From Escherichia coli (lineage in GTDB: Bacteria; Pseudomonadota; Gammaproteobacteria; Enterobacterales; Enterobacteriaceae), in NCBI RefSeq assembly GCF_001677475.2, contig NZ_CP015229.1: a stretch of 64,000 bases of DNA. One strand, written 5' to 3'. Shown here piece by piece: positions 29,248 through 56,804 of the stretch. A program made the translations under genes and the position numbers. Position 1 is the first letter of the stretch. Each line of letters begins with the position of its first letter. The notes below the pieces were generated by a model that saw only the letters and a program-made list of their open reading frames with translations, searched no databases and was not told the origin of the DNA.

Positions 29248-30888
29248 TTATTCCGACACAACTGGCTTTTTTTCACACTTTTGCGGCTCGGGTCGAGGGT
29301 ATTTCCATAGCCAACGTCCAGTAACCATTCGCCAGTAAAACAGCACGGCCCGCACAGCCCAGTCGGCAAACATTCCCATCCAGACACCAACCACACCCCA
29401 GCCAAGCATGATTCCCAGCACATAACCGACTACAACCCGGCAACCCCACATGCTCAACATAGAAACCCACATGGCGTAACGGGCATCACGAGCACCTTTA
29501 AATCCAGCGGGTAGCACCCATGAGGCGGACCAAATAGGCATAAATAAAGCATTTAGCCAAATCAGAATCACAACGACATGTTTAACCTGTGGATCCTGGG
29601 TGTAAAACGATGCCATAAGCCCGGCAAAGGGAGCCGTTAGCCAGGCGATGGCCGTTAACCCAAGAGTGGACAGCCAGAACACATGCCGCAACTGAATCTC
29701 TGCTTGCGCTATCTGCCCTACCCCCAACCTTCGGCCTGTAATGATCGTAGAAGCAGAGCCGAGCGCACTTCCGGGTAAGTTGATAAGAGCCGCAATTGAA
29801 AACGCGATAAAATTTCCGGCAATAACACTGGTCCCCATCCCGGCAACGAACATTTGGGTTAATAACCGACCACTGGTAAATAACACTGATTCGACACTCG
29901 CGGGAATACCAATCCCCATGACTTCCCAGATAATGCTAAAATTCAGCGGTTTAAAATAGCTCTTTAACGAAATCCTTAGCGCAGGATTAAAACCAATCGC
30001 CAGCACCCACAAAATTGCAACTGCGCCAATATAACGAGAAATGGTTAAACCCAACCCAGCCCCGACAAATCCCAGTCCCGGCCAGGAGAAAAGGCCGTAA
30101 ATCAATATGCCGCTAATAATAATATTAAGAATATTCAGGCTACCGTTAATCAGTAGCGGTATTTTCGTATTCCCTGCACCACGAAGTGCCCCGCTACCAA
30201 TTAGAGTGATGGCAGCTGCTGGATAACTGAGTACCGTCAGCTCCAGATAAGTCAACGCCAGTGCTTTAACTTCTGTCGTGGCATCACCCGCGACGAAATC
30301 AATAATTTGCTCGCCAAAATGATGAATAAGCGTTGCCAACAGTACGGCAAACAACGTCATGATCACCAATGACTGCCGCGTCGCCACCCTCGCTCGTCGT
30401 CGATCCCGCTTACCGAGACTAAATGCCACAACGACAGTAGTACCAAGATCGATAGCAGCAAAAAAAGCCATAATGACCATATTGAAGCTGTCCGCCAATC
30501 CCACGCCGGCCATCGCATCTTTTCCCAGCCAGCTGACCAGAAAAGTGCTCAGGACCCCCATCAGCAGGACACAGGCATTCTCCATGAAGATAGGAACAGC
30601 AAGCGGGGTTATCTCGCGCCAGAACAACACTTTGTAGCTCTTGCGTTTAGCGTGCCAGCGAGTGCCGTGAACAACCTGGCGTAAAGCAGAGGAGATATTC
30701 AAAGCCGACCTTAATTGCAGAAAGTGAAACCACATTTCAAATGATGAGGGAGAATCAGCAAAGCTGCAAAGATTTTCGCCAACAAATTGTCTGCAAATGC
30801 AACAAACTGTTGATAGAAACGGCAAACAGTTGGGGAATTTAAAAATCGGGTTTGACAAAAGATTTTTCGCCGTTAAGATGTGCCTCAA
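29248..30888 (-). CDS. yeeO: MATE-family multidrug/flavin efflux transporter
   Basis: 546-aa polytopic membrane protein, 12 TM helices, MATE-like; position between asnW and asnU as in E. coli; the true start may be an internal Met. Confidence 0.8.
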   Translation of the reverse strand: MRHILTAKNLLSNPIFKFPNCLPFLSTVCCICRQFVGENLCSFADSPSSFEMWFHFLQLRSALNISSALRQVVHGTRWHAKRKSYKVLFWREITPLAVPIFMENACVLLMGVLSTFLVSWLGKDAMAGVGLADSFNMVIMAFFAAIDLGTTVVVAFSLGKRDRRRARVATRQSLVIMTLFAVLLATLIHHFGEQIIDFVAGDATTEVKALALTYLELTVLSYPAAAITLIGSGALRGAGNTKIPLLINGSLNILNIIISGILIYGLFSWPGLGFVGAGLGLTISRYIGAVAILWVLAIGFNPALRISLKSYFKPLNFSIIWEVMGIGIPASVESVLFTSGRLLTQMFVAGMGTSVIAGNFIAFSIAALINLPGSALGSASTIITGRRLGVGQIAQAEIQLRHVFWLSTLGLTAIAWLTAPFAGLMASFYTQDPQVKHVVVILIWLNALFMPIWSASWVLPAGFKGARDARYAMWVSMLSMWGCRVVVGYVLGIMLGWGVVGVWMGMFADWAVRAVLFYWRMVTGRWLWKYPRPEPQKCEKKPVVSE

Positions 30889-30895
30889 CAGCGAT

Positions 30896-30971
30896 TCCTC
30901 TGTAGTTCAGTCGGTAGAACGGCGGACTGTTAATCCGTATGTCACTGGTTCGAGTCCAGTCAGAGGAGCCA
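30896..30971 (+). tRNA. asnU: tRNA-Asn (GUU)
   Basis: Identical 76-nt tRNA-Asn sequence. Confidence 0.95.
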
Positions 30972-30979: not shown

Positions 30980-31009
30980 AAAAGCCCGCTTTTTTAGCGG
31001 GCTTTTTGC
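30980..31009 (+). terminator. Intrinsic terminator after asnU (probably bidirectional, abuts the cbl stop)
   Basis: aaagcccgc-ttttttag-cgggcttttt. Confidence 0.7.
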
Positions 31010-31429
31010 TATATCTGATAATCAATTTCCTCTTCACTGTTTTCCATCACCTGCCGCTTAATATCCTCAACTGACAGTCCTGCATTACAAAGTTCCAGAA
31101 AGCGCCAGACATAGTTACGCTGAAGTTGTCCTCGCTTGAGTCCCAACCAGACAGTATTAGCATCAAAAAGATGCCGCGTATCCAGGCGGATTAGATTCTC
31201 TTCCTCTTGTTCGCCGCTGGATTGTTCGGCAACTAATCCGATCCCAAGCCCAAGAGCAACATAGGTTTTAATGACATCAGAATCCTGCGCACTTAATACA
31301 ATATCTGCCAGCAAACCTTTGCGGGCAAATGCGTCATCAATACGTGAGCGCCCCGTAATCCCCTGTCGGTAAGTGATTAACGGCCACTTCGCTATTGATT
31401 CCAGCGTCAATGGTGAAATTTGCGTCAAG
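31009..31429 (-). pseudogene. cbl: cbl 3-prime fragment (C-terminal about 135 codons of the LysR-family sulfonate-utilisation regulator Cbl), separated from its 5-prime part by an IS insertion
   Basis: Translation TQISPLTLESIAKWPLITYRQGITGRSRIDDAFARKGLLADIVLSAQDSDVIKTYVALGLGIGLVAEQ... continues the reading frame of the 5-prime fragment at 33840..34375 exactly across the IS. Confidence 0.85.
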
Positions 31430-31522
31430 TATGAGACGACAATAACTCAGTCCGCCTGGCGCCGATTATTCTGGCCGGTTTTGTAACCTGAGTGTCATTT
31501 ACATGATCCAACAGGAAATGGC

Positions 31523-33022
31523 GTGACGCTCAATACTTCTCAGGTCAGTTACTATATGACTCAGCGTAAGAAAGGTATAACTCAGCATATCTCGGCCATG
31601 AAGGCTGGTATCTCAGTCCGTTCTGGTCGTCGGATCGAAAAAGGAGAGTGGGCAAAAAACAGTGTTCGGCACTGGCGCACACGCAAAGATCCTCTGGAAG
31701 CTGTGTGGGACAGCATGCTTGTTCCTCTGTTGAAAGAGAGGCCGGCTCTGACACCAACAACTCTACTGGAGATGCTACAGGATAAATATCCCGGCCAGTA
31801 CCCCAACAGCCTTCGAAGAACAATGCAACGGCGGGTTCGCGAATGGAAACTACAGTATGGTACAGAGCAGGAGGTCATGTTCCGCCAGCAACATCAGCCC
31901 GGCCTGCGAGGCCTGTCGGACTTTACTGAACTGAAAGGTGTAGTTGTCACCATCGCCGGTAAGTTGTTGGCGCATAAGTTGTATCACTTCCGTCTGGAAT
32001 GGAGCCACTGGAGCTGGATGCGGGTTGTTCTGGGTGGTGAGAGCTTCTCTGCTCTGGCTGAAGGCCTGCAGGAAGCCCTCGGACAACTGGGCGGAGTGCC
32101 GGTAGAACATAAAACGGACAGCCTGAGGGCAGCATGGAAACAACAGGGCGAAGATGGACGCCGCGAGCTGACTGAGCGTTATGCTACTCTCTGTCAGCAC
32201 TACGGAATGCAGGGCGTACACAATAATGCCGGTCGGGGCCACGAAAATGGCTCGGTTGAAAGTGCCCACGGACATCTGAAAAGGCGTATCTGTCAGGCGC
32301 TGATACTGCGGGGCAGTAACGACTTCAGCACCATAGAAGAATATCAGGCCTTCATCACTCAGCAGGTTATGCGGCACAACCGTAACAATCAGGATCTGGT
32401 CAAGGAAGAACGTCTTCATCTGAAACCGCTGCCGCTTCGTCGCAGTGCTGACTATGATGAGCTGACTGTGAGGGTTAGTCGCAGCAGTACCATCAATGTG
32501 AAGCACGTCGTCTACAGCGTACCTTCCCGGCTTGTAGGTCAACTGTTACGGGTCAGGTTATGGGACGATCGTCTGAGCTGTTACGTTGGCAGCAGCGAGG
32601 TCATGAGCTGCCCTCGCGTCAGACCAGAAAAAGGGAAGACGCGGGCCCGTCGTATCGACTTCCGACATGTGATCGACAGTCTGGCAAAAAAGCCCGGTGC
32701 GTTCTGCCATGCAACGCTGAGAAATGACATCCTGCCGGACGATGAATGGCGGAGGCTGTGGCGTCGCTTATGTAATCATCTGGAGCCCGATATGGCAGGA
32801 AGGCTGATGGTACATGCCCTGAAACTGGCTGCAGGATACGACGATATCTCAGTCGTGGCAAAAGGTATGGAGCAGATGCTGAATACCCCGGGAAACGTGG
32901 ATCTGCACCGGCTGATGCGCTTCCTGGGTATAAAAGAAAAGGCGTTGCCGGTAGTCAATGTGATACAGCATAACCTGAGCAGTTATGAGCAACTACTGCG
33001 TGGCAAGGGAGGTTCGCAGTGA
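31523..33022 (+). CDS. istA: IS21-family transposase IstA
   Basis: 499 aa; N-terminal HTH, central DDE-type integrase core; overlaps the downstream istB by 4 bp as in IS21-family elements. Confidence 0.85.
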   Translation: MTLNTSQVSYYMTQRKKGITQHISAMKAGISVRSGRRIEKGEWAKNSVRHWRTRKDPLEAVWDSMLVPLLKERPALTPTTLLEMLQDKYPGQYPNSLRRTMQRRVREWKLQYGTEQEVMFRQQHQPGLRGLSDFTELKGVVVTIAGKLLAHKLYHFRLEWSHWSWMRVVLGGESFSALAEGLQEALGQLGGVPVEHKTDSLRAAWKQQGEDGRRELTERYATLCQHYGMQGVHNNAGRGHENGSVESAHGHLKRRICQALILRGSNDFSTIEEYQAFITQQVMRHNRNNQDLVKEERLHLKPLPLRRSADYDELTVRVSRSSTINVKHVVYSVPSRLVGQLLRVRLWDDRLSCYVGSSEVMSCPRVRPEKGKTRARRIDFRHVIDSLAKKPGAFCHATLRNDILPDDEWRRLWRRLCNHLEPDMAGRLMVHALKLAAGYDDISVVAKGMEQMLNTPGNVDLHRLMRFLGIKEKALPVVNVIQHNLSSYEQLLRGKGGSQ

Positions 33023-33774
33023 GCAATATCCATCACCTTGAACATAGCCTGCGTAAACTACGCCTGACACGAGTTGGAGCTGAATGGCACGCTCTGGAAA
33101 AACGAGCGCTGGCAGAAGGCTGGACACCATCGCGCTATCTTCTGACGCTATGCAATGAAGAACTCCTGTGGCGCGAGAGTGAAAAACTGCGTCGTTATAA
33201 AAAGGAGGCCCGGTTGCCAGTTGCCAAAACGCTGAGCGAATACGACTTCAGTCAGGTGCCGGAACTGAATGGAGCTCAGTTCCGGCAACTCTGTGAAACG
33301 ACAGACTGGGTTGATGCAGGAGAAAACGTTCTGCTGTTCGGAGCCAGCGGGTTGGGGAAAAGCCATCTGGCGGCAGCGATCGTGGATGGCGTAGTAGGTC
33401 AGGGCTACCGGGCCCGGTTCTACAGCGCAGGAGAGCTGTTGCAGGAACTACGTAAAGCCAGAGCTCAGTTGAAACTGAATGAGCTGCTACTGAAACTGGA
33501 TCGCTACCGGGTGATAGTGGTGGATGATCTTGGCTATGTCAAACGCGATAGTGCCGAAACGGGTGTGCTGTTCGAGTTAATAGCGCATCGCTATGAACGT
33601 GGGAGCCTGGTGATAACCAGTAACCATCCGTTCAGCATGTGGGGCAGCATCTTCGTGGATGAGACTATGGCGGTGGCTGCGGCAGACAGGCTGATCCATC
33701 ACGGATATATGTTCGAACTGAAAGGGGAAAGCTACAGGAAAAAGACAGCGAAGGCAGTAACAAGCGCGACTTGA
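33019..33774 (+). CDS. istB: IS21-family helper ATPase IstB
   Basis: 251 aa; Walker A GASGLGKSH and Walker B VIVVDDLGY; DnaC-like AAA+ fold typical of IstB. Confidence 0.9.
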   Translation: MSNIHHLEHSLRKLRLTRVGAEWHALEKRALAEGWTPSRYLLTLCNEELLWRESEKLRRYKKEARLPVAKTLSEYDFSQVPELNGAQFRQLCETTDWVDAGENVLLFGASGLGKSHLAAAIVDGVVGQGYRARFYSAGELLQELRKARAQLKLNELLLKLDRYRVIVVDDLGYVKRDSAETGVLFELIAHRYERGSLVITSNHPFSMWGSIFVDETMAVAAADRLIHHGYMFELKGESYRKKTAKAVTSAT

Positions 33775-33839
33775 TGTCGCCCTGAAGGGTGCGGCCAGTA
33801 TAGTTGGCGCGAGTCGGCAAAACTAGTTGACGTCTAATA

Positions 33840-34375
33840 GTCAAGGGATGATCGTGTGGAACAAGCAAACTATGGTGCCAACGAAACCACGGGAAGGCGA
33901 CGAGCTGCGGGTCATTACTCAAACGCTCGCTGGCGATACCAATATCAGCTTCACCATTTTGCAACAACGTCGCAATTTCCTGTGGCGTCCCCTGGATTAG
34001 CTCGAGCCGAACCTCCGGGAAAAGTTCGCGAAAAGCTTTAATGACCTCTGGCAAGCTATAACGTGCCTGAGTATGCGTCGTTGCAATAGTGAGAACGCCA
34101 GACGTATCGTTGGTAAACAGGTCTGCAAGCCGACGAACATTACTGGCTTCATTCAGAATACGTTCTGCAATGACCAGTAATGCTTTGCCCGGTTCAGTCA
34201 TGCCCAGCAGTCTCTTACCTCGTCGAACAAATATTTCGATGCCAAGTTCATCCTCCAGTTCCCGAATATGACGGCTGACGCCTGACTGTGAGGTAAAAAG
34301 CATATTCGCAACCTCTGTCAGGTTGTAATCCTGACGTGCAGCTTCGCGGATTATCTTTAGTTGTTGGAAATTCAC
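33840..34375 (-). pseudogene. cbl: cbl 5-prime fragment (N-terminal about 178 codons, LysR HTH and start of the substrate-binding domain)
   Basis: MNFQQLKIIREAARQDYNLTEVANMLFTSQSGVSRHIRELEDELGIEIFVRRGKRLLGMTEPGKALL... up to ...LLVPHDHPL, then the frame runs into IS sequence; the ORF track entry 33665..34375 is the artefactual read-through. Confidence 0.85.
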
Positions 34376-34476
34376 GGTAAACTCCGGGCAGTTCAGATAT
34401 CCCGTTATTGTTAAAGTCTAATGCCCGGCATAACAAATAATAAAAACCCGCATCTTATTCCATCCCGATATAACGC

Positions 34477-35394: not shown

Positions 35395-35448
35395 GTTGCC
35401 TCCGGTGTTTAAGAATCGGCACAAGTGCCGCCATTACTTACAACCAGA

Positions 35449-35465
35449 GTGCAAGATGCTTGCCA
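35449..35465 (-). promoter_or_regulatory. Sigma-54 (-24/-12) promoter element for nac
   Basis: Minus-strand sequence CTGGCAAGCATCTTGCA fits TGGCAC-N5-TTGCA and lies about 55 to 70 bp upstream of the nac ATG; nac is known to be NtrC/sigma-54 dependent. Confidence 0.55.
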
Positions 35466-35720
35466 GTTTTATTTTGGCGTTGATGTACAAGCTAACCAGC
35501 TGTCAAATAAGAGATTATGATAGATTCGTCATTGGCTCCTTTAATCAGCTGTCGCGTTCCCCTGCCCTATAAAAGGAGGGTATGCACCACGATGGTTCAT
35601 TACCCAATAAGATTGAAAGCTCACCACTTTGTTGAAATTGACAGCAAACAAACAAAAAAATGCATTTCACCCTTTGACATCACCATGCACTGCCATTAAT
35701 ATGCGCCCCGTTCACACGAT

Positions 35721-35796
35721 TCCTCTGTAGTTCAGTCGGTAGAACGGCGGACTGTTAATCCGTATGTCACTGGTTCGAGTCCAGTCAGAGGAGCCA
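35721..35796 (+). tRNA. asnV: tRNA-Asn (GUU)
   Basis: Identical 76-nt tRNA-Asn sequence; same upstream discriminator as asnT. Confidence 0.95.
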
Positions 35797-38683: not shown

Positions 38684-39225
38684 TTGATTTTTACTCCAAT
38701 ACCCGAAACCACCAGCCATACTTCATTTGCCGCAGCGGCCAGCTGCTGATTTACCCGCCCGGCAATATCACGAAAATGTCGTGCCAGACGACTCTCCGGC
38801 ACAATCCCCATACCCACTTCGTTAGTCACTAATACAACCTTTGCGGGGCAACGTTGGCAGGCAGTAATCAACGACTGAATCTCAGCATTAATCGCCTGTT
38901 CCATCACCTGATAATCCCATTCATCAGGGTCTTTATCGCCGCCATAATCAAACAACAGATTAGTCACCATTGTGGTAACGCATTCCAGCAACACAGCCTC
39001 ATTCGGGTTAATGTCTGCATGAATTAATTCATCAAGATGTTGCCAGCGCTCCACTGTGCGCCAGTGCGCCGGGCGGCCTTGCCGATGATGTTCTATCCGT
39101 GCAGCCATCTCATCATCAAGGATTTGCGAGGTGGCGATATACAGAACCTGTGAAGAGTCCCCAATAAGCGCCTCTGCGTGGCGACTCTTCCCGCTCCGTG
39201 CGCCCCCCGTCACCAAAATCATCAT
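38680..39225 (-). CDS. cobU: Bifunctional adenosylcobinamide kinase / adenosylcobinamide-phosphate guanylyltransferase
   Basis: 181 aa with P-loop GGARSGKS; matches CobU. Confidence 0.9.
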
Positions 39226-39358
39226 ACCGACTCCTGATTCATTTGTATGATGGTATTCATTGAACAGAACAATGGATCCCCCACCGTTGCTGACCGCAAA
39301 ACATTTACGCGATTAATACTGCGCGTAATATAATTAAAAATCCAGTATTCTCAATCCA

Positions 39359-39865
39359 TTACGAAAGAAGATGGCATTGCGGGATAGCCAGACTTCCTCG
39401 TGTTAACGTCCGACAAAATGCGTCATTGACAGCGGTTTCTCTGGCATGACAGATTTCATTCAGATAATGGATTAATGCTGCAGCCCCACCAGCCGGACCA
39501 GTCAGCAAACGGGCATTGTGTTCTGCAATCAAAATTACCGTCGTTCCCTCAGAATGAGCGAGCCATTCTGGTACAGATATCTCGCTTTCAGCTGCTATCA
39601 ATAGCAGCACTGAATAATCGCTATATGCATCTGATAACGATTGCACAGGCCCACCGTCAAAAGGCTGGAAATCTTGCTGCCAGTCCTCACCAACAAAACA
39701 GGTTATTGGCAATATTTCAGCCAGATGTTTCGCCAGGTCCACATCTCCAGATAAGAGGCAAAAAAGAGCTATCGATTCGGGTTTTATCGTTTTCATGCCC
39801 CTCGCCCTCCACTTAATTTCCTGTAATGGCGGTCTGGTTGATAAGCCATGAAACAAGATTGCCAC
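39359..39865 (-). CDS. Orphan ORF (145 to 168 aa) occupying the slot of the cbi genes, immediately downstream of the cobalamin riboswitch; possible remnant or fusion of cbi genes
   Basis: ORF track; first ORF after the riboswitch on the cob-operon strand; no family recognised; the corresponding interval in Salmonella holds 17 cbi genes. Confidence 0.4.
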   Translation of the reverse strand: MAILFHGLSTRPPLQEIKWRARGMKTIKPESIALFCLLSGDVDLAKHLAEILPITCFVGEDWQQDFQPFDGGPVQSLSDAYSDYSVLLLIAAESEISVPEWLAHSEGTTVILIAEHNARLLTGPAGGAAALIHYLNEICHARETAVNDAFCRTLTRGSLAIPQCHLLS

Positions 39866-39959
39866 ACCTTAAGTGCAGCCCTGGTGCCTGTCGGCACTGC
39901 GATGAAAGAACTAAATGATGCCGCCATACCCTGATCCTTTCAGGGTGGTAGGGGTATAA

Positions 39960-40190
39960 AGACGCGCCTGTACTCTACCTGACGCTTCCGGGCAACCCAC
40001 TTCCCACCGAAGTTGTTGGTATTGACTGACTGGCTGGTCTTCTGGCTTAGCGTCATCCTCACCCGACCTTCCCAATCTCGCGATCAGTGGCATTTTCGGG
40101 TTTGTCAGCATTACAGCAGCGGGGGCTGCGAGGGATTTTCACCCTCTTCCCAGGCACAAATGTGCCACACCTGTCAGCGTATGTTATGAG
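39960..40190 (-). promoter_or_regulatory. Cobalamin (B12) riboswitch in the cob operon leader
   Basis: The minus strand reads ...GGGAAGAGGGTGAAAATCCCTCGCAGCCCCCGCTGCTGTAATG...GCCACTG...GGGAAGGTCGGGTGAGG..., matching the conserved core and the B12 box (GCCACTG) of the cobalamin riboswitch; located between pocR and the first cob-strand ORF as in Salmonella. Confidence 0.8.
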
Positions 40191-40277
40191 CTGATTTCAC
40201 TTTTCCCATAACAGGTAAATAACGTTAATTATTCATTCCAGCGTTTATTTAAACCTTCCCTTTTTTTAGCATTTACT

Positions 40278-41192
40278 CTATACCGTTTCCATCGCCGCAT
40301 TTTCACTCACTTGCTGTCGATACACCTGCGGCGTAACCTGATAAGTCTGACGAAAAACTTTGCAAAAATAACTGGTTTGTGAAAAACCTAAATTACGCGC
40401 AATGCTGGCGATGCTCCAGTCGCTATGGCACAGTAACTCACGAGCGCTGGCCATCCGTTGTTGGTTTACCCACGCATTAAACCCGATTCCATGGTATTTC
40501 TTGAATAACTTACTGAAATAATAAGGGCTTAGATAAACATGCGAGGCGACATCTTCCAGACGCAAATCGTCTGATAAATGCGCATCAATATAGCGTAAAG
40601 CTTTTTTCATTTTATTGTCGTGGGGACCAGGCGCACGAGTCTGGCGCACCGAATCTGACTGAGATTTGTTCTCTTTAATAACCACAAAATTGAGTTGTTT
40701 TTTGAGGCAATTTTCTACAATCAACTTCAACAAATCAGCAGAGGCCATAACTCTTGAGTAATCCATCTCAGGGACTTTGCGAAATTCATTAAGTAATTCG
40801 GGATCTGCCTGCCAGCAATCATCGACATTCAGAATATCGACCAAATCGACATCATCATTACGCAGACGAACTTGCCCGCACAATACAAAACCGACTAAAT
40901 GCCCGGCGATTACCAGTGGAATAGAGAAATCGGTTAATCCGGCATGACAGCGATAAATACAAGGCTGATCGGATTTAGAGGCTTCCAGGCCCCCACAACG
41001 ATCGCTCATGCGACATCGAGTGCTTAGCTGAGGGTGTTGCCGCATCAACTGACAAAATGGAGTGAAGTTAAACAGCTCGGAAATTTCATCGCCGTGAATA
41101 TTGACCACGACAACCGCAAGGCTGGTCGCCTGCGCAAAATCCTGCGCGATTTTATTAATGAGTTCTGAATTAAGTGTCGCCGCAGAAATCAT
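40278..41192 (-). CDS. pocR: AraC-family regulator PocR (activator of pdu and cob operons)
   Basis: 304 aa; C-terminal AraC-type HTH (DVASHVYLSPYYFSKLFKKYHGIGFNAWVNQQRMASARELL); position between pduF and the cob leader. Confidence 0.85.
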   Translation of the reverse strand: MISAATLNSELINKIAQDFAQATSLAVVVVNIHGDEISELFNFTPFCQLMRQHPQLSTRCRMSDRCGGLEASKSDQPCIYRCHAGLTDFSIPLVIAGHLVGFVLCGQVRLRNDDVDLVDILNVDDCWQADPELLNEFRKVPEMDYSRVMASADLLKLIVENCLKKQLNFVVIKENKSQSDSVRQTRAPGPHDNKMKKALRYIDAHLSDDLRLEDVASHVYLSPYYFSKLFKKYHGIGFNAWVNQQRMASARELLCHSDWSIASIARNLGFSQTSYFCKVFRQTYQVTPQVYRQQVSENAAMETV

Positions 41193-41394
41193 GATAAAAC
41201 CTCCCAGTTAATTTATTGTTATAGCAAAACAATTGTTTTACATTTAATCTTCACATCATCCTTGATGATTTACTGACGAGAAGCACAAAGGACAATAACA
41301 AAAGCCTCCGTGAAGCGGGAGACTTTTTAATAAGTTCGGAAAGCAGATCACAAACAGTAAAAAAATAAACGTTTATAACTGCCAGATTATTTCG

Positions 41395-42204
41395 TTATTC
41401 GCTGATTTCTTTAGGCGTTACACTATTGACAGGTAAATTCTTTGCAATGAGATAGCGATAAATCGCCGCACCAACACATGCGCCAATGATCGGTGCAATA
41501 ATGGGTACAATGAAATAAGGAATATTGCGTCCACCAGTCATCGCAATTTCCCCCCAACCCGCAAGCCAGGTGAAAAATTTAGGTCCAAAATCACGCGCTG
41601 GATTCATGGCAAAACCGGTTAATGGTCCGGTAGAAGCACCAATAACAGCAACCAGAATACCAATTAGTAAAGGCGCAAGCGGTCCTTTGGGTACGCCATT
41701 ACCGTCATCGGTCAACGCCATAATCAACCCCATTAACATGGACGTTATGACCACTTCGACCAACGCAGCTTGCCATACATTAATCGCCGCTGCCGGATAA
41801 GTACTGAAGATACTGGCGAGTTGTAAACTTTCTGCACTACCACGCACCATATTGTGAGCAGATTCAAAATCGGTAAACAAACTGCTGTATAGAGAATATG
41901 CCAGAACCGCACCACCAAAGGCACCCGCTAATTGCGCCACACAAAATGGCAGCACTTTACGGGCTGGGAAAGAGGCAAACAGCCACAGAGCAATGGTAAC
42001 TGCCGGGTTGAGATGAGCGCCGGAAATACCTGCCGTAAGGTAAACAGCAAGCGAAATCCCTAACCCCCAAATGATACAAATTTCCCACAGTCCCAGACTT
42101 GCCCCGGCAACTTTCAGGGCGCACAAACAACCAATGCCAAAAAAGAGGAACAGTCCGGTGCCTAAAAACTCGGCAACGCATTGCGCCTTGAGTGAATCAT
42201 TCAT
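41395..42204 (-). CDS. pduF: Propanediol diffusion facilitator (MIP/aquaporin family)
   Basis: Two NPA motifs (HLNPAVT and NPARDFGPK), six TM helices; start taken at MNDSLKAQC within ORF 41395..42243. Confidence 0.85.
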   Translation of the reverse strand: MNDSLKAQCVAEFLGTGLFLFFGIGCLCALKVAGASLGLWEICIIWGLGISLAVYLTAGISGAHLNPAVTIALWLFASFPARKVLPFCVAQLAGAFGGAVLAYSLYSSLFTDFESAHNMVRGSAESLQLASIFSTYPAAAINVWQAALVEVVITSMLMGLIMALTDDGNGVPKGPLAPLLIGILVAVIGASTGPLTGFAMNPARDFGPKFFTWLAGWGEIAMTGGRNIPYFIVPIIAPIIGACVGAAIYRYLIAKNLPVNSVTPKEISE

Positions 42205-42243
42205 AGTGACACCTTCTTTACGGAGTTTTTCTTTATCAGCCAA

Positions 42244-42716
42244 CTATGCGCTGATTGTTGTGTATATCGAGCGCAACTATAAAAAATTGCTCTGCAGAAA
42301 ATATTGCCAACATGCATGACAGACTCGTGTAAAAATCGTTCTAACATAGCAAATTATTGTCATTGCCGAAGCATGCAACACAGCGTTAATCAGTGTTGAA
42401 AGTAATAATTACTGTCAAACTTTCACAATAAAAAATTGTCATCATGATATAATAAAATTTAAACAAATATCACAATTCCCTTCCGCCAACCAAACCCAAC
42501 GAAATTTTATCCGCGATTAACCCCCTCAACCAACGCAATTAATTCACATTGAAACATCCACAAAATAACCAAGAAATTAATAACATATAGTTTATAAAAG
42601 CAATTTTATAATATTTGCCCTCTATTAATTTTTCTCATTAGCCGATTAAGTCAGCCATTCTTTTTCCTCGCTTTTTTTTATAGTCATATCGTCAAAAAAA
42701 TCCAGGCGAGGTCTTT
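42244..42716. promoter_or_regulatory. Divergent pduF/pocR - pduA control region
   Basis: 473-bp AT-rich intergenic region between divergently transcribed pduF and pduA; expected site of the pdu promoters and PocR binding. Confidence 0.5.
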
Positions 42717-43001
42717 ATGCAACAAGAAGCGTTAGGAATGGTAGAAACCAAAGGCTTAACTGCCGCCATAGAGGCCGCAGACGCCATGGTGAAGTCGGCA
42801 AATGTTTTGCTGGTCGGCTACGAAAAAATAGGTTCCGGGCTGGTGACAGTCATCGTTCGTGGTGATGTCGGGGCGGTAAAAGCGGCAACAGACGCAGGTG
42901 CCGCAGCTGCGCGTAACGTCGGCGAAGTAAAAGCCGTACACGTTATTCCCCGCCCACATACCGATGTCGAAAAAATCTTACCAAAGGGAATTAACCCATG
43001 A
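42717..43001 (+). CDS. pduA: BMC-H shell protein PduA
   Basis: 94 aa with a single BMC domain ([30 protein letters not shown]...). Confidence 0.9.
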
Positions 43002-43810
43002 GCAGCAATGAACTGGTCAAACAGATCATGGCGCAGGTCATCGCTCGCGTAGCGACGCCAGAGCATGAGGTTCTCCCGAAAACCACTCATCAAATACGAG
43101 AGACGGCTATGGCAGAAAAAAGCTGCACGTTAACAGAATTTGTTGGCACCGCTATTGGCGACACTGTAGGTCTGGTCATTGCGAACGTTGATAGCGCCCT
43201 GTTGGACGCGATGAAACTTGAAAAACGCTATCGTTCCATTGGCATTCTGGGTGCGCGTATTGGCGCAGGGCCACACATTATGGCCGCTGATGAAGCGGTA
43301 AAAGCCACCAACACTGAAGTTATTAGCATTGAACTTCCTCGGGATACTAAAGGCGGTGCCGGACATGGCTCATTGATCCTCTTAGGTGGCAACGATGTTT
43401 CCGACGTGAAACGCGGTATTGAAGTCGCCCTGAAAGAACTCGATCGGACCTTTGGCGATGTCTATGCCAACGAAGCCGGACATCTTGAGCTGCAATATAC
43501 CGCCCGCGCCAGCTATGCACTGGAAAAAGCGTTTGGAGCACCATTGGGACGGGCTTGCGGCGTTATTGTCGGCGCTCCGGCTGCGGTGGGTGTTCTGATG
43601 GCCGACACCGCGCTGAAGTCCGCCAATGTGGATGTCGTGGCATACAGCTCCCCCGCTCAAGGCACCAGCTACAGCAACGAAGTCATTCTGATTATCTCGG
43701 GTGACTCCGGCGCAGTCCGCCAGGCGGTCATCTCCGCACGCGAAATCGGTAAAACCGTGCTTTCGACTCTCGGCGATACACCGAAAAACGATCGCCCTTC
43801 CTACATCTGA
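42998..43810 (+). CDS. pduB: Tandem-BMC shell protein PduB (an internal start would give PduB-prime)
   Basis: 270 aa; ATGA overlap with pduA; internal Met at [11 protein letters not shown] corresponds to the known PduB-prime start. Confidence 0.85.
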
Positions 43811-43828
43811 ATTCTCTGAGGCAGATTT

Positions 43829-45493
43829 ATGAGATCGAAAAGATTTGAAGCACTGGCAAAACGCCCGGTCAACCAGGACGGTTTCGTTAAAGAGTGGATT
43901 GAAGAAGGCTTCATTGCGATGGAAAGCCCGAACGATCCTAAACCGTCAATCAAAATTGTTAACGGCGTCGTTACCGAACTGGATGGAAAACCCGCCAGTC
44001 AGTTTGACCTGATCGACCACTTTATCGCCCGCTACGGCATCAATCTCGCGCGCGCAGAGGAAGTCATCGCGATGGATTCGGTAAAACTGGCCAATATGTT
44101 GTGCGATCCAAATGTCAAACGTAGCAATATCGTTCCCCTTACCACAGCAATGACGCCTGCAAAAATAGTCGAAGTAGTTTCGCAGATGAACGTGGTAGAG
44201 ATGATGATGGCGATGCAGAAAATGCGCGCCCGTCGAACACCATCACAACAGGCTCACGTCACCAACGTCAAAGATAACCCGGTACAAATTGCCGCCGACG
44301 CAGCTGAAGGCGCATGGCGCGGGTTTGATGAACAGGAAACCACCGTTGCCGTTGCTCGCTATGCCCCGTTCAACGCCATCGCCCTGCTGGTCGGCTCACA
44401 GGTGGGACGCCCGGGCGTCTTGACCCAGTGTTCACTGGAAGAAGCCACCGAACTGAAACTCGGTATGTTAGGCCACACCTGTTACGCCGAAACAATTTCT
44501 GTCTATGGTACAGAACCTGTTTTCACCGATGGCGATGACACCCCGTGGTCAAAAGGATTTCTCGCGTCATCCTATGCTTCTCGCGGCTTAAAAATGCGCT
44601 TTACTTCCGGCTCTGGCTCTGAAGTACAGATGGGTTACGCGGAAGGTAAATCAATGCTTTATCTCGAGGCTCGTTGCATTTACATCACCAAAGCCGCAGG
44701 CGTTCAGGGCCTGCAGAGTGGTTCGGTAAGCTGCATCGGTGTTCCATCAGCTGTGCCATCAGGCATCCGCGCGGTATTAGCGGAAAACTTAATTTGCTCA
44801 TCGCTGGACCTGGAATGCGCCTCCAGTAATGACCAGACCTTTACCCACTCGGATATGCGCCGTACAGCACGTTTCCTGATGCAGTTTCTGCCAGGTACCG
44901 ACTTTATCTCTTCCGGTTTTTCCGCTGTGCCGAACTACGACAACATGTTTGCTGGTTCAAACGAAGATGCTGAAGACTTCGATGATTACAACGTCATTCA
45001 GCGTGACCTGAAGGTTGATGGCGGGCTGCGACCAGTACGCGAAGAAGATGTTATCGCTATCCGCAATAAAGCCGCTCGCGCTTTACAGGCTGTCTTTGCC
45101 GGTATGGGACTACCGCCTATTACCGATGAAGAAGTCGAAGCGGCAACCTATGCCCACGGTTCGAAAGATATGCCTGAGCGCAATATTGTGGAAGACATTA
45201 AGTTCGCCCAGGAGATTATCAATAAAAACCGTAACAGCCTGGAAGTGGTGAAAGCCCTGGCGCAAGGCGGTTTTACCGATGTCGCCCAGGCCATGCTCAA
45301 CATGCAAAAAGCAAAACTGACCGGCGATTATCTCCATACCTCAGCCATCATCGTCGATGACGGACAAGTGCTCTCTGCGGTCAATGACATCAATGATTAC
45401 GCCGGACCGGCTACAGGTTACCGCCTGCAAGGGGAACGCTGGGAAGAGATCAAAAATATTCCCGGTGCACTTGATCCCAACGAAATTGACTAA
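43829..45493 (+). CDS. pduC: B12-dependent diol dehydratase large subunit
   Basis: 554 aa; MRSKRFEALAKRPVNQDGFVKEWIEEG... matches PduC/PddA. Confidence 0.9.
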   Translation: MRSKRFEALAKRPVNQDGFVKEWIEEGFIAMESPNDPKPSIKIVNGVVTELDGKPASQFDLIDHFIARYGINLARAEEVIAMDSVKLANMLCDPNVKRSNIVPLTTAMTPAKIVEVVSQMNVVEMMMAMQKMRARRTPSQQAHVTNVKDNPVQIAADAAEGAWRGFDEQETTVAVARYAPFNAIALLVGSQVGRPGVLTQCSLEEATELKLGMLGHTCYAETISVYGTEPVFTDGDDTPWSKGFLASSYASRGLKMRFTSGSGSEVQMGYAEGKSMLYLEARCIYITKAAGVQGLQSGSVSCIGVPSAVPSGIRAVLAENLICSSLDLECASSNDQTFTHSDMRRTARFLMQFLPGTDFISSGFSAVPNYDNMFAGSNEDAEDFDDYNVIQRDLKVDGGLRPVREEDVIAIRNKAARALQAVFAGMGLPPITDEEVEAATYAHGSKDMPERNIVEDIKFAQEIINKNRNSLEVVKALAQGGFTDVAQAMLNMQKAKLTGDYLHTSAIIVDDGQVLSAVNDINDYAGPATGYRLQGERWEEIKNIPGALDPNEID

Positions 45494-45502
45494 GGGTGAG
45501 AA

Positions 45503-46171
45503 ATGGAAATTAACGAAAAATTACTGCGTCAGATTATCGAAGACGTGCTGGCAGAAATGCAAACCAGCGACAAGTCCGTTTCATTTCGCGCACCTGTCTC
45601 TGCAACTGCCTTTTCCGCGCCAGATACCGGAAATTTTCTGACCGAAATTGGCGAAGCACAACAAGGCACTCAGCAAGATGAAGTCATTATTGCTGTAGGC
45701 CCGGCGTTCGGCCTGGCGCAAACCGTCAATATCATCGGTATTCCGCATAAAAACATCTTGTGCGAAGTGATTGCCGGTATCGAAGAAGAAGGCATTAAAG
45801 CCCGTGTGATTCGCTGCTTTAAATCGTCCGATGTCGCATTCGTAGCAGTCGAAGGCGATCGTCTTAGTGGTTCAGGTATTGCTATCGGTATTCAGTCGAA
45901 AGGTACAACGGTTATCCACCAGCAAGGTCTTCCTCCCTTGTCTAACCTGGAACTTTTCCCACAAGCGCCTTTGTTGACGCTGGATACTTATCGTCAGATT
46001 GGCAAAAACGCCGCGCGTTATGCGAAGCGTGAGTCTCCACAACCGGTGCCGACCCTCAACGATCAAATGGCGCGGCCGAAATACCAGGCCAAATCTGCCA
46101 TTTTGCATATTAAAGAGACGAAGTACGTGGTCACTGGCAAAAAACCGCAAGAACTGCGCGTGACGTTTTAA
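45503..46171 (+). CDS. pduD: Diol dehydratase medium subunit
   Basis: 222 aa; position and size match PduD. Confidence 0.85.
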
Positions 46172-46185
46172 CAAAGGAAACCTTC

Positions 46186-46704
46186 ATGAATACCGATGCA
46201 ATTGAGTCGATGGTCAGGGACGTGTTGAATCGCATGAACAGTTTACAGGATGCAGCTCCTGTTTCTGCGGTCCCCAACGCGTCAATACAGAGCGCCAAAG
46301 TGACGGATTACCCGCTGGCAAATAAACATCCGGAATGGGTTAAAACAGCGACCAATAAAACGCTCGACGATTTCACCCTGGAAAATGTGCTAAGCGATAA
46401 CGTCACCGCCCAGGATATGCGCATTACCCCTGAAACATTGCGTATTCAGGCTGCGATTGCCAGAGATGCTGGTCGCGATCGTCTGGCGATGAATTTTGAA
46501 CGCGCCGCTGAGCTTACCTCAGTACCGGATGATCGCATCCTCGAAATCTACAATGCGTTACGCCCTTATCGTTCAACTAAGCAAGAACTTATTGCCATTG
46601 CTGACGATCTTGAACGGCGTTATCAGGCCCAAATTTGTGCTGCATTTGTCCGTGAAGCTGCGGAACTTTATGTCGAGCGCAAAAAACTGAAAGGCGACGA
46701 TTAA
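46186..46704 (+). CDS. pduE: Diol dehydratase small subunit
   Basis: 172 aa; position and size match PduE. Confidence 0.85.
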   Translation: MNTDAIESMVRDVLNRMNSLQDAAPVSAVPNASIQSAKVTDYPLANKHPEWVKTATNKTLDDFTLENVLSDNVTAQDMRITPETLRIQAAIARDAGRDRLAMNFERAAELTSVPDDRILEIYNALRPYRSTKQELIAIADDLERRYQAQICAAFVREAAELYVERKKLKGDD

Positions 46705-46713
46705 GGACGAACT

Positions 46714-48546
46714 ATGCGATATGTAGCAGGCATTGATATCGGCAACTCATCAACAGAGGTTGCGCTGGCAACGCTCAGTGCAACTGGAGAGTTGTCGTTC
46801 GTGAGTAGCGCCCTGGCGGAAACCACAGGAATTAAAGGTACGTTGCGTAACGTCCATGGTATTCAGGAGGCGCTCGCACAGGCAACGAAAAAAGTCGGCA
46901 TCAATGTTAGCGATATTTCGCTTATTCGTATCAATGAAGCAACCCCGGTCATTGGTGATGTGGCGATGGAAACCATCACTGAAACTATCATCACCGAATC
47001 AACCATGATCGGTCACAACCCGAAAACTCCGGGCGGAGTGGGGCTGGGCGTAGGGCTCACCATCACTCCGCAAGAGTTATTAACACGCCCGGCGGACACA
47101 CCTTACATTCTGGTGGTGTCATCGGCATTTGATTTTGCCGATATCGCGAAGATGATAAACGCCTCCGTACGAGCCGGATATCAGCTGACTGGCGTTATTC
47201 TACAACGCGACGATGGTGTGCTGGTCAATAACCGCCTGGAAATTCCTTTACCTATTGTGGATGAAGTCCTCTACATCGATCGTATTCCGCTCGGCATGCT
47301 GGCTGCAATTGAAGTTGCCGTTCCCGGGAAAGTTATCGAAACCCTGTCTAACCCGTATGGGATTGCCACCGTTTTCGCCCTCAATGCTGAAGAGACTAAA
47401 AATATTGTTCCTGTCGCGCGGGCGCTAATCGGCAACCGTTCAGCAGTGGTAGTGAAAACGCCCTCTGGCGACGTTAAAGCCCGTTCGATACCCGCCGGAA
47501 ATATCGAACTGCTTTCTGCCGGGCGCACAACGCGGGTTGATGTAGCTGCTGGTGCCGATGCCATTATGAAAGCGGTCGGTGAGTGCCCAAAACTGGAAAA
47601 CGTGACAGGAGAACCAGGCACCAACATCGGCGGAATGCTGGAACATGTTCGCCAGACCATGGCGGAACTGACCAACAAACCCAGCAACGAAATTTTTATT
47701 CAGGATTTGCTGGCGATAGATACCTCTGTCCCCGTCAGCGTAACCGGCGGTCTGGCAGGTGAATTTTCACTGGAACAGGCTGTGGGTATTGCTTCTATGG
47801 TGAAATCCGACCGTCTGCAAATGGCGATGATCGCCAGTGAAATTAAGCAAAAACTGCATGTTGATGTTCAGGTCGGAGGCGCAGAAGCAGAAGCCGCCAT
47901 TCAGGGGGCCTTGACTACCCCAGGAACCACACGTCCACTGGCAATTCTGGACTTAGGTGCAGGCTCTACCGATGCCTCCATCATCAATCAGAAAGGGGAA
48001 ATCGTTGCCACTCACCTTGCGGGAGCGGGCGACATGGTAACGATGATTATCGCTCGTGAGCTGGGCTTAAATGATCGTTATCTGGCAGAAGAAATCAAAA
48101 AGTACCCGTTGGCAAAAGTAGAAAGCCTGTTCCACTTACGCCATGAAGATGGCAGCGTTCAGTTCTTCCCTACTCCCCTATCCCCTCATGTATTCGCCCG
48201 CGTTTGTGTGGTGAAACCTGACGAACTGGTGCCTATTCCCGGTGATTTGACGCTGGAAAAAGTACGCGCTGTTCGTCGCAGTGCGAAAGAACGTGTCTTC
48301 GTAACCAATGCCCTGCGCGCGCTACGTCAGGTAAGCCCTGCCGGAAATATTCGCGACATTCCGTTCGTCGTTCTGGTGGGTGGTTCTTCGCTGGATTTCG
48401 AAGTACCGCAATTGGTCACCGACGCGCTGGCACATTATCGACTGGTCGCCGGGCGGGGGAATATCCGTGGTAGCGAAGGTCCGCGCAACGCGGTAGCTAC
48501 TGGGCTACTCATCGCCTGGCACAAGGAGTCGATTCATGGAAAGTAA
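46714..48546 (+). CDS. pduG: Diol dehydratase reactivase large subunit
   Basis: 610 aa; MRYVAGIDIGNSSTEVALA... actin/Hsp70-like ATPase fold typical of PduG/DdrA. Confidence 0.85.
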   Translation: MRYVAGIDIGNSSTEVALATLSATGELSFVSSALAETTGIKGTLRNVHGIQEALAQATKKVGINVSDISLIRINEATPVIGDVAMETITETIITESTMIGHNPKTPGGVGLGVGLTITPQELLTRPADTPYILVVSSAFDFADIAKMINASVRAGYQLTGVILQRDDGVLVNNRLEIPLPIVDEVLYIDRIPLGMLAAIEVAVPGKVIETLSNPYGIATVFALNAEETKNIVPVARALIGNRSAVVVKTPSGDVKARSIPAGNIELLSAGRTTRVDVAAGADAIMKAVGECPKLENVTGEPGTNIGGMLEHVRQTMAELTNKPSNEIFIQDLLAIDTSVPVSVTGGLAGEFSLEQAVGIASMVKSDRLQMAMIASEIKQKLHVDVQVGGAEAEAAIQGALTTPGTTRPLAILDLGAGSTDASIINQKGEIVATHLAGAGDMVTMIIARELGLNDRYLAEEIKKYPLAKVESLFHLRHEDGSVQFFPTPLSPHVFARVCVVKPDELVPIPGDLTLEKVRAVRRSAKERVFVTNALRALRQVSPAGNIRDIPFVVLVGGSSLDFEVPQLVTDALAHYRLVAGRGNIRGSEGPRNAVATGLLIAWHKESIHGK

Positions 48547-48886
48547 AGAGCGTGCACCAGCCATCGTCGTCATGGAGATCGGTGACTGTATCACTACATG
48601 GGATGAAGTGCTTCTTGGCATTGAAGAGGAAGGTATTCCCTTTCGCATTCAACACATTCCGTCAGGTGAAGTTATCGATAGCGCCTGGCTGGCTGCTCGT
48701 CAATCTCCCCTGTTGGTTGGCATTGCCTGCGATCAGGAAAAACTGATTGTACATTACAAAAACTTACCGGCATCAGCGCCACTGTTTACGCTGATGTATC
48801 AACAAGATAACCATGCCCGGCGCAGCATCGGCACTAACGCTGCCCGCCTGGTAAAAGGGATTCCCTTCCGGGAACTCCACTCATAA
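48536..48886 (+). CDS. pduH: Diol dehydratase reactivase small subunit
   Basis: 116 aa; overlaps the pduG end; position and size match PduH. Confidence 0.8.
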
Positions 48887-48905
48887 TCCACAGGAGAAAC
48901 GCAGT

Positions 48906-49181
48906 ATGAACAACGCACTAGGACTGGTTGAAACAAAAGGGTTAGTTGGCGCAATTGAAGCTGCAGATGCCATGGTTAAATCCGCCAACGTGCAACTGGT
49001 TGGCTATGAAAAGATTGGTTCGGGTCTGATTACGGTGATGGTCCGCGGTGATGTTGGTGCAGTAAAGGCCGCCGTGGATGCGGGGAGCGCTGCGGCAAGC
49101 GCAGTTGGCGAAGTGAAATCCTGCCATGTCATCCCGCGCCCACACAGTGATGTTGAGGCTATTTTACCTAAATCGGCATAA
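48906..49181 (+). CDS. pduJ: BMC-H shell protein PduJ
   Basis: 91 aa; single BMC domain, PduA paralogue. Confidence 0.9.
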
Positions 49182-49204
49182 CCCCATTTGCTAAGGAGCA
49201 CAGC

Positions 49205-49627
49205 GTGAAGCAATCACTGGGATTACTTGAAGTCAGTGGTCTGGCTCTCGCCATCAGTTGCGCAGACGCTATGGCAAAAGCCGCGTCCATCACGCTGGTT
49301 GGCCTTGAGAAGACCAATGGCTCAGGCTGGACGCTCATCAAAATCACCGGTGACGTCGCCTCGGTTAATGCGGCGATCGCGACGGGAGCCAGTTTCGCCG
49401 GACAGCGAAATGGCCTTGTCGCACACAAAGTGATTGCCCGCCCGGGAGACGGCATTCTGCCCCACACAACTGAAGCATTGACCGTGACGGTTGAAACAAG
49501 CAAAACACCAGCAACAACCGTCACCTCAGAGATTATCAGTTGTAATTTGTGTCTTGACCCGGCATGTCAGCGGCAAAAAGGTGAGCCCCGCTCACTTTGC
49601 CTGTACGCCAATAAGCGAGGGGAGTAG
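49205..49627 (+). CDS. pduK: BMC shell protein PduK
   Basis: 140 aa; N-terminal BMC domain with C-terminal extension containing cysteines (CNLCLDPAC). Confidence 0.8.
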   Translation: MKQSLGLLEVSGLALAISCADAMAKAASITLVGLEKTNGSGWTLIKITGDVASVNAAIATGASFAGQRNGLVAHKVIARPGDGILPHTTEALTVTVETSKTPATTVTSEIISCNLCLDPACQRQKGEPRSLCLYANKRGE

Positions 49628-49629
49628 CA

Positions 49630-50262
49630 GTGGATAAACAAACCCTGCAGGAAACAGTGAGCCAGATTCTGGATGAGATGCGCGAGCGCCCTATCCCACT
49701 GGGCGTTTCCAGTCGCCATATTCATCTTTCAACAGCGGATTATTTGCGTCTTTTTCCTGAACAACCGATTAGCGAGAAAAAGCCGTTAATGCAACCTGGC
49801 CAATTCGCTGCTGAACAGGTTGTTACGCTGGAGGGACCAAAAGGCAAATTGCACAACGTTCGCTTGTTGGGGCCGCTACGCAATGCAAGCCAGGTGGAAA
49901 TTTCCCGGACGGACGCCAGAACGTTAGGGATCACCGCCCCGCTACGCATGTCAGGCGATCTCAGCGGCACTCCGGGGATTCGTTTGATAAGCCCATTTGC
50001 GGAACTGGAGATCACATCTGGCGTCATTGTCGCGCAACGGCATATTCATATGTCTCCGCTGGATGCCCTGATTTATGGCGTTACGCATGGCGATAAATTG
50101 GCGGTTGCCATTGAAGGTGATGAGCGAGGACTGATATTCGAAAACGTCGCTGTTCGCGTCTCTCCGGATATGCGTCTTGAAATGCATATTGATACCGATG
50201 AGGCCAACGCCGCAGGCGCTGATAGCCCTGACGTTTTTGCCACACTGGTGTCAGTGCCATGA
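49630..50262 (+). CDS. pduL: Phosphate propanoyltransferase
   Basis: 210 aa; PduL/EutD-like; position matches. Confidence 0.8.
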   Translation: MDKQTLQETVSQILDEMRERPIPLGVSSRHIHLSTADYLRLFPEQPISEKKPLMQPGQFAAEQVVTLEGPKGKLHNVRLLGPLRNASQVEISRTDARTLGITAPLRMSGDLSGTPGIRLISPFAELEITSGVIVAQRHIHMSPLDALIYGVTHGDKLAVAIEGDERGLIFENVAVRVSPDMRLEMHIDTDEANAAGADSPDVFATLVSVP

Positions 50263-50750
50263 ATAACATGCTGATGCAACGTATTGTTGACGAAGTGGTT
50301 TTTCGCCTTAAACAACGTGCGGGAAAAGCACTCGTGCTGACTGTTTTTCAACTGCGAGACGCCAGCGTTCAAGAGAGCGTTCATCAGTATGCGTCATTAC
50401 AAATCCGATATGTCGATCTGCCGTTGTTACGACAACTTGCGGAGAACAAAACGTCAGATCGAGCAGCAATTCAGATACACGAAGCGTTAGCCTGGGGATT
50501 GCACATTCAATTGTCGTTGCAGCGTCATTTCCTGAACGCCATTGAATTGAAGACTCTCGCCCGTCTACCGCTAAGCTGGTGCGACGAGCAAGGGCAACCG
50601 ATCTACCTTCATCGTGATCGACTTTTAAGTTATGCCGATATTGCACAGTTAAGCTCGGGAATACTGGTGTTACAGCGAAAATGTTGTGTGACCGCACTGG
50701 CTCGTGAAGCGGCAATTACCCGAAATATTCAGTTAATCAGGCAGGAGTAA
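50259..50750 (+). CDS. pduM: Microcompartment structural protein PduM
   Basis: 163 aa; position and size match PduM. Confidence 0.75.
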   Translation: MNNMLMQRIVDEVVFRLKQRAGKALVLTVFQLRDASVQESVHQYASLQIRYVDLPLLRQLAENKTSDRAAIQIHEALAWGLHIQLSLQRHFLNAIELKTLARLPLSWCDEQGQPIYLHRDRLLSYADIAQLSSGILVLQRKCCVTALAREAAITRNIQLIRQE

Positions 50751-50753
50751 CCT

Positions 50754-51029
50754 ATGCATCTGGCTCGAGTCACTGGCGCGGTAGTATCCACGCAAAAATC
50801 ACCTTCTCTGATCGGGAAAAAACTGCTGCTGGTTCGCCGGGTCAGTGCTGACGGCGAACTGCCTCTCACGCCATTAACCGGCGACGAAGTTGCCGTTGAT
50901 TCCGTCGGCGCAGGCGTTGGTGAGTTGGTACTCCTCAGCAGTGGTTCCAGTGCCAGACATGTGTTTTCAGGCCCTAACGAGGCCATCGACCTGGCAGTGG
51001 TCGGCATTGTCGATACGCTTTCGCGCTAA
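50754..51029 (+). CDS. pduN: BMC vertex (pentamer) protein PduN
   Basis: 91 aa; EutN/CcmL-family pattern. Confidence 0.85.
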
Positions 51030-51040
51030 GGAGCTGAAAG

Positions 51041-53430: not shown

Positions 53431-53440
53431 AGAAACGGAA

Positions 53441-55893: not shown

Positions 55894-55895
55894 CC

Positions 55896-56450: not shown

Positions 56451-56800
56451 TGACAACTCAGCACACAACTGAACGGATGATTCAGGAATATGTCCCTGGT
56501 AAGCAGGTCACGCTGGCACATGTCATCGCCAATCCAGGGAAGGATCTGTTTAAGAAATTGGGTTTACCAGACACCGTTTCTGCTATTGGCATTCTGACGA
56601 TTACCCCCAGCGAAGCATCTATCATCGCATGTGATATCGCCACAAAATCAGGCGCTGTAGAGATCGGTTTTCTTGATCGTTTTACCGGTGCCGTAGTGCT
56701 GACTGGTGATGTTTCTGCGATTGAATATGCACTTAGCCAGGTTACCCGTACGCTGGGTGAAATGATGCGCTTTACCGCTTGCCCCATTACGCGGACCTGA
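56450..56800 (+). CDS. pduU: BMC shell protein PduU (permuted BMC)
   Basis: About 116 aa from [18 protein letters not shown]...; its start overlaps the pduT stop; the ORF track 56426..56800 is an upstream extension. Confidence 0.85.
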
Positions 56801-56804
56801 CGTT

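Follow-up and report, generated by a model that had tools for sequence, protein, structure and literature searches.

The nac promoter of Klebsiella is the original model of NtrC-activated, Nac-repressed sigma-54 control. In the Klebsiella work of Feng and colleagues from 1995 and of Bender from 2010, a weak adjacent NtrC site and anti-activation by Nac are said to form part of this control. In Escherichia coli, glnAp2 and the glnK promoter belong to the same class as the nac promoter, with NtrC and sigma-54 acting together, an upstream enhancer and induction by nitrogen limitation; work cited in PMC3870243 indicates that nac needs more NtrC than glnAp2 before it fires. The K-12 promoter was recovered as site OS19 in the sigma-54 ChIP-seq study of Bonocora et al. 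2015 (PMC4591121), in which it is flagged as experimentally confirmed in EcoCyc, served as the positive control for induction by nitrogen limitation, and has a predicted transcription start site (TSS) 45 bp from the nac start codon. Genomic SELEX peaks of both RpoN and NtrC fall in the K-12 nac/asnV spacer (PMC8743547). NtrC binding to the region upstream of nac in K-12 is described in both of these papers (PMC4066584, PMC8743547), the first of which also assigns a strong NtrC ChIP-seq peak to nac-cbl and lists the nac-cbl unit as an NtrC target (PMC4066584).

The window analysed here (64,000 nucleotides of an E. coli chromosome) carries a textbook copy of this already known promoter. The -24/-12 element that the preliminary description had called intact is indeed so: the 17-mer upstream of nac is identical to K-12 at all 17 bases, and is the OS19 site itself (PMC4591121). 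We consider it, with a probability of about 95%, to be the functional NtrC-activated, sigma-54-dependent nac promoter (nacp), its core identical to that of K-12. Identity, position and conservation can be read directly from the DNA, and binding by sigma-54 and NtrC and induction under nitrogen limitation are taken from the literature on the identical K-12 core, for which sigma-54 occupancy and initiation dependent on an activator and ATP have been documented (PMC4591121, PMC4066584, PMC8743547). The coordinates of the promoter and of the other features of the locus are collected in the table.

Features of the nac-cbl locus, in window coordinates (position 1 is the first letter of the window; centres are given relative to the predicted TSS)
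Feature	Sequence or size	Position	Strand	Details
sigma-54 -24/-12 core promoter of nac	CTGGCAAGCATCTTGCA	35450-35466	minus	GG 35463-35464, GC 35451-35452
Predicted high-affinity NtrC (enhancer) site	TGCACCACGATGGTTCA	35583-35599	none	1 mismatch to TGCACCA-N3-TGGTGCA; predicted from sequence
Second conserved element	CCTCCTTTTATAGGGCA	35563-35579	none	Block in the 80-species alignment; centre about -132
Candidate Nac auto-regulatory site	ATCATAATCTCTTAT	35507-35521	minus	ATC-N9-TAT (ATN-N9-TAT); centre -75
Predicted nac 5' leader	45 nt	35395-35439	minus	From the predicted TSS (35439) to the base preceding the ATG
nac	305 aa	34477-35394	minus	Intact LysR-type regulator; Pfam HTH_1 and LysR_substrate
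Divergent asnV unit		35674-35796	plus	sigma-70 promoter TTGACA-17-TAATAT 35674-35702; tRNA-Asn 35721-35796; K-12 annotation
nac-cbl intergenic region	101 bp	34376-34476	minus	cbl's own promoter lies here in K-12; scan and fold gave no strong intrinsic terminator
cbl 5' fragment	codons 1-178	33840-34375	minus	GTG start; K-12 alignment and translation; Pfam HTH_1 and partial LysR_substrate
ISEc10 (IS21 family)	2410 bp	31430-33839	plus	Antisense to cbl; K-12 alignment breakpoints
Target-site duplication	GTCAAG, 6 bp	31424-31429 and 33840-33845	none	Overlap of two K-12 alignment blocks (break 31429/33840)
cbl 3' fragment	last 138 codons and stop	31009-31429	minus	No start codon of its own

The surroundings of the promoter are those of K-12. 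Gene order is the same (asnW, yeeO, asnU, cbl, nac, asnV, ldtA, cobT), the Nac protein shows 100% amino-acid identity to K-12 Nac, and its reading frame carries the nac annotation in thousands of E. coli genomes. At the nucleotide level the window shares 97-99% identity with E. coli genomes, and the nac locus reaches at best 99.0% against any complete genome, so that the strain is absent from the complete-genome set. Identity falls to 95% with Escherichia sp. MOD1-EC7003 and to 89-91% with three divergent Escherichia genomes (one E. whittamii and two submitted under the name E. coli), which places the window in E. coli proper. Compared with the region upstream of K-12 nac (b1988), the 17-bp core, the 45-nt leader and the divergent asnV are the same, and there are 6 substitutions in 351 bp, all of them outside the core, the NtrC site and the -75 element. 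One of the differences is at 35449, the base directly 3' of TTGCA, which is C here and A in K-12; among 80 Enterobacteriaceae species the equivalent base is A in most, C in one Citrobacter and G in three species. The K-12 locus differs further downstream, where cbl is interrupted by ISEc10 in our strain. The Klebsiella loci are also much alike: in K. pneumoniae (locus L079) the core TGGCAAGCAAATTGCA lies 57 nt ahead of the ATG with an NtrC-like site at about -152, the spacer bases of the Klebsiella core being GCAAA rather than the GCATC found here.

The core has the layout TGGCAA-N5-TTGCA (TGGCAA-GCATC-TTGCA), with GG and GC 10 nt apart and 1 mismatch to TGGCAC-N5-TTGCW, and lies in the sense orientation, on the minus strand like nac, with the nac ATG (35394) 56 nt downstream. 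The 17-mer has one exact match in the 64-kb window, which falls within 35425-35520. The loose consensus TGGCAC-N5-TTGCW with at most 1 mismatch, on the other hand, gave 5 matches in the window against 3.5 expected, a bare motif count barely beyond chance level, and we therefore relied on position, conservation and a leave-nac-out matrix instead. For this sigma-54 matrix we took the intergenic ChIP-seq sites that Bonocora et al. 2015 list in their Table 1 and omitted that of nac, which left 41. A sigma-54 promoter prediction had been proposed as a check in the preliminary description, and the nac core came out of it as the best match on both strands of the window, at 17.5 bits compared with a median of 15.8 bits for the intergenic sites used in training.

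On these scores one could still argue that the core is a chance sigma-54-like sequence and that nac is driven from another promoter, given the 5 loose matches against 3.5 expected and the 0.24 sites scoring as high as the nac core expected per 64 kb of random sequence (taken alone, such a score arises by chance in about one in five random sequences of 64 kb). The weight for the nac core comes from its position, its conservation and its exact identity with a published site rather than from the bare motif. We estimate at about 3e-4 the chance of finding such a site in the correct orientation within 150 nt upstream of nac. The identity is with a K-12 promoter that is both ChIP-verified and confirmed in EcoCyc, and a promoter scan of the nac/asnV spacer returned no sigma-70-like promoter on the nac strand from which the gene could otherwise be read. 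The conservation speaks in the same direction. We fetched the nac loci of 80 Enterobacteriaceae species and derived a column-wise footprint from their alignment. TGGCAN-N5-TTGCA with at most 1 mismatch was present upstream of nac in all 80, at 54-60 nt from the ATG (47 nt in two Pseudocitrobacter), and was accompanied by a phased NtrC site: the best NtrC-like sequence falls between -151 and -154 for about 70 species, and Kluyvera (-131) and Pseudocitrobacter (-141) have it nearer the core. The conserved blocks of the footprint were the core with its A-rich 5' flank, the NtrC site, the second element next to it, the ribosome binding site and the surroundings of the -75 element. A chance origin of the motif is thus effectively refuted, and we leave it practically no probability.

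The core is also palindromic (GCAAG-ATG-CTTGC) and is followed on the plus strand by a T-rich run, so that it might be read as a plus-strand terminator stopping antisense transcription, such as istAB read-out through the cbl fragment and nac, ahead of the asnV promoter. There is a plus-strand terminator-like match at 35451-35463 followed by CAGTTTTATT, istAB do lie on the plus strand, and the scan found no T-run terminator after istB. The hairpin, however, would have a stem of only 5 bp with a 3-nt loop, and the region contains 8 such sites against 5.2 expected from shuffles, which is not above chance. Moreover, the -24/-12 consensus explains the palindrome fully, and the A-rich tract upstream of -24 is conserved promoter context. 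A terminator role is for these reasons extremely improbable, and we continue with the core as the nac promoter.

Upstream of the core, TGCACCACGATGGTTCA is the sole match to the NtrC consensus with fewer than 3 mismatches in the window and is centred at about -152 relative to the predicted TSS. The element CCTCCTTTTATAGGGCA lies about 20 bp closer to the promoter, and in many genera a related sequence, TTACCCCTTATGGGGCA, is found at about 20 bp from the main NtrC site, which makes it plausible that this second element is a low-affinity NtrC site. Another candidate at about -190, TTCAACAAAGTGGTGAG, was rejected: it has 4 mismatches, its distance of 37 bp from the main site puts it off-phase, and it is a poor match in other genera.

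Between these sites and the core, AT-N10-TAT centred at -74 to -76 occurs in 58 of the 80 sequences, its ends being conserved and its interior variable, and an ATN-N9-TAT element is located at -74 in the Klebsiella loci L055 and L059. Conserved ends with a variable middle at this position would fit a LysR-type site. From Klebsiella work we take the Nac consensus to be ATA-N9-TAT, and on that assumption the -75 element would be a candidate Nac auto-repression site, although the consensus is short. No mention of auto-regulation or of a Nac consensus was found in the Nac ChIP paper PMC5217608.

One further block, TTTGCTGNCAAT at 35636-35647, is strongly conserved across the 80 Enterobacteriaceae species. 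It lies upstream of both genes, at a distance of about 200 bp from the start of nac and about 60-75 bp from that of asnV. It may be either an upstream activator site of asnV or a further element of nac; of the 75 loci that include 450 nt or more of upstream sequence, 73 have a tRNA-Asn gene diverging from nac, and because this pairing is nearly constant the two roles are inseparable by comparison.

Transcription of nac probably starts near 35439, as given by the rule that the TSS lies 19 bp downstream of the motif centre (PMC4591121), which yields the same 45-bp distance to the start codon as in K-12. The resulting leader contains the ribosome binding site GGAGG at 35400-35404. Folding against shuffles detected no significant structure in the leader, and a candidate hairpin, GGCAC-UU-GUGCC, did no better than the shuffles.

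Downstream of nac, cbl is broken by an insertion sequence. The preliminary description had put the element at 2.4 kb, and the measured size is 2410 bp, within a cbl that spans 31009-34375 on the minus strand when the insertion is included. The insert carries two overlapping plus-strand genes, istA (31523-33022, 499 aa, with a Mu-transposase C-terminal domain) and istB (33019-33774, 251 aa, IstB_IS21 Pfam match at 9e-62), and ends in imperfect terminal inverted repeats of 48 nt; with a transposase gene (istA), a helper ATPase gene (istB), terminal repeats and a short target duplication it is a member of the IS21 family, ISEc10. It is present as a single copy in the window. Compared with annotated ISEc10 copies it has the same 2410 bp, overlapping istA/istB and imperfect terminal repeats at 99.9% identity, and only the insertion site, codon 178 of cbl, is distinctive.

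The 5' fragment of cbl runs into the element to give a Cbl'-IS fusion ORF of 236 aa that ends at 33665, and on the other side a 139-aa ORF (31009-31428) opens at a TTG across the IS junction and contains the C-terminal 138 residues of Cbl. Removal of the element and of one copy of the duplication restores an intact ORF of 316 aa, of which the sole change from K-12 is S307N; the insertion is therefore recent. The cbl::ISEc10 junction was found in none of 5426 complete E. coli genomes, in 5411 of which cbl is contiguous, and a literature search on IS insertions in cbl returned nothing relevant. The allele is an ordinary sort of pseudogene at strain level, though a rare one, and the function of Cbl has probably been lost through it in this strain. 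The promoter had been placed 100 bp from the disrupted cbl. That figure holds for the gap between the nac stop and the cbl start, which is 101 bp, and not for the promoter, which is separated from the cbl start codon by 1075 bp and from the IS by 1611 bp. Since all cis elements of the promoter are upstream of nac, away from the IS, they cannot be disturbed by it.

The same description took cbl to be normally Nac-dependent, which is imprecise by the sources consulted here. According to secondary citations, cbl is CysB-dependent from its own promoter, and under nitrogen limitation the nac promoter drives it as part of a nac-cbl unit; these sources tie the gene to CysB and, via the nac promoter, to NtrC and sigma-54, and none names a dependence on the Nac protein. 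In our strain the scan found no terminator-like site on the minus strand of the nac-cbl gap, and folding of the gap (z = -1.15) was not better than shuffles, with a weak AU-rich hairpin before GGGUUUUUAUUAUUU. With no strong terminator detected between nac and cbl, nitrogen-limited transcripts probably enter at least the cbl 5' fragment and the IS.

Whether such transcription goes further is a separate matter. It had been suggested that transcription from the IS, or read-through, could affect the cbl 3' fragment or the asnU terminator region. The terminator region does adjoin the 3' end of cbl, as described: asnU (30896-30971, plus) is followed by a hairpin at about 30981-31008 and then by the cbl stop at 31009. 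Reading from the nac promoter into the broken gene could be expected from the nac-cbl co-transcription reported for K-12 (PMC4066584) and from the apparent lack of a strong terminator between the two genes here. The proposed effect itself, however, is without sequence support and seems very unlikely. The IS is antisense to cbl, and past the fusion stop at 33665 a transcript would consist of more than 2 kb of untranslated antisense IS RNA with several minus-strand terminator-like hairpins (e.g. 31674-31660 with a T6 run), so that Rho-dependent or intrinsic termination before 31429 is likely. The scan found no promoter-like site facing out of the IS toward the cbl 3' fragment, which itself lacks a start codon and encodes just part of the effector domain, and asnU is equipped with a promoter of its own (30852-30879) as well as a hairpin that faces cbl already in the wild type. 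An outward hybrid promoter at the right end of the IS, with TTGACG at 33826-33831, was also considered and rejected, as no acceptable -10 was seen by eye in the flanking cbl and the scan reported none.

The asnU hairpin, AAAAAGCCCGCT-TTTT-AGCGGGCTTTTT, is bordered by an A-tract and, at its opposite side, by a T-tract, and stops 1 nt short of the cbl stop codon. The genes asnU and cbl are convergent, and the hairpin resembles a bidirectional terminator used by both; the scan missed it because the T-run was counted within the stem.

A more adventurous idea, which we regard as very unlikely, is that nitrogen limitation drives NtrC/sigma-54-dependent antisense transcription across istB/istA, which could make ISEc10 transposition nitrogen-responsive through interference or antisense RNA. 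Under the same idea, the strain would make a nitrogen- and sulfur-inducible truncated Cbl (HTH, half of the effector domain and a 58-aa IS tail) that might interfere with Cbl or CysB targets.

Taken with the literature on K-12, the elements at the locus suggest the following mechanism. In the closed complex, sigma-54 RNA polymerase would occupy the GG (-24) and GC (-12) of the core. Upon nitrogen limitation, phosphorylated NtrC would assemble on the strong site, and probably on the weak site about 20 bp closer, contact the polymerase through DNA looping and use ATP to open the promoter, giving nac mRNA from a start near 35439. Nac would probably damp its own promoter via the ATN-N9-TAT element at -75. 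In wild-type E. coli some transcripts would run on into cbl, forming the nac-cbl unit; with cbl cut at codon 178 by ISEc10, Cbl would no longer be made in response either to CysB or to nitrogen limitation.

Several other features of the window were recorded. A complete pocR-pduF / pduABCDE...V operon for the propanediol-utilisation microcompartment lies beside cobUST at 39001-57250 (pocR at about 40278-41192, minus; pduA to pduV at about 42716-57247, plus), and this pdu/cob layout is found at 80% coverage or more in only 636 of 5426 complete E. coli genomes. On the minus strand, 40015-40189 matches a full-length cobalamin riboswitch (Rfam RF00174, 109 bits), after which come only a short hypothetical ORF and then cobU; cbi biosynthetic genes are absent, and the riboswitch thus appears to be what is left of the leader of the cob operon. 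In the pocR/pduF spacer there is an Rfam match to the enterobacterial sRNA STnc230 (76 bits, 41253-41336, plus), on the opposite strand to both genes. The second-best match to the sigma-54 matrix, CTGGCAGGCAAATTGCA (52959-52975, minus, 16.4 bits), is antisense inside pduP, and could be an intragenic sigma-54 site like those of Bonocora et al. or a chance match. At the other end of the window, a sok antitoxin RNA of the hok/sok type (1299-1473, minus) and the DicF sRNA (8748-8799, plus) lie in a prophage-like segment (integrase, exonuclease and DnaT-like genes) that adjoins a tRNA-Ser gene at 13265-13354.

About twenty sigma-54 promoters of E. coli have experimental confirmation, that of nac among them, and finding it here adds very little new biology; what is useful is that the promoter, the enhancer and a likely Nac site are now annotated in window coordinates. 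For the Enterobacteriaceae, the 80-species footprint shows a rigid architecture, in which the distance of the core is fixed and the NtrC site is at -152, shifted towards the promoter by about one helical turn in Pseudocitrobacter and about two in Kluyvera. For this strain, the loss of Cbl predicts an inability to use taurine or alkanesulfonates as sulfur source and would break the nitrogen-to-sulfur cross-talk that passes through nac-cbl read-through, leaving the Ntr-to-Nac cascade intact.
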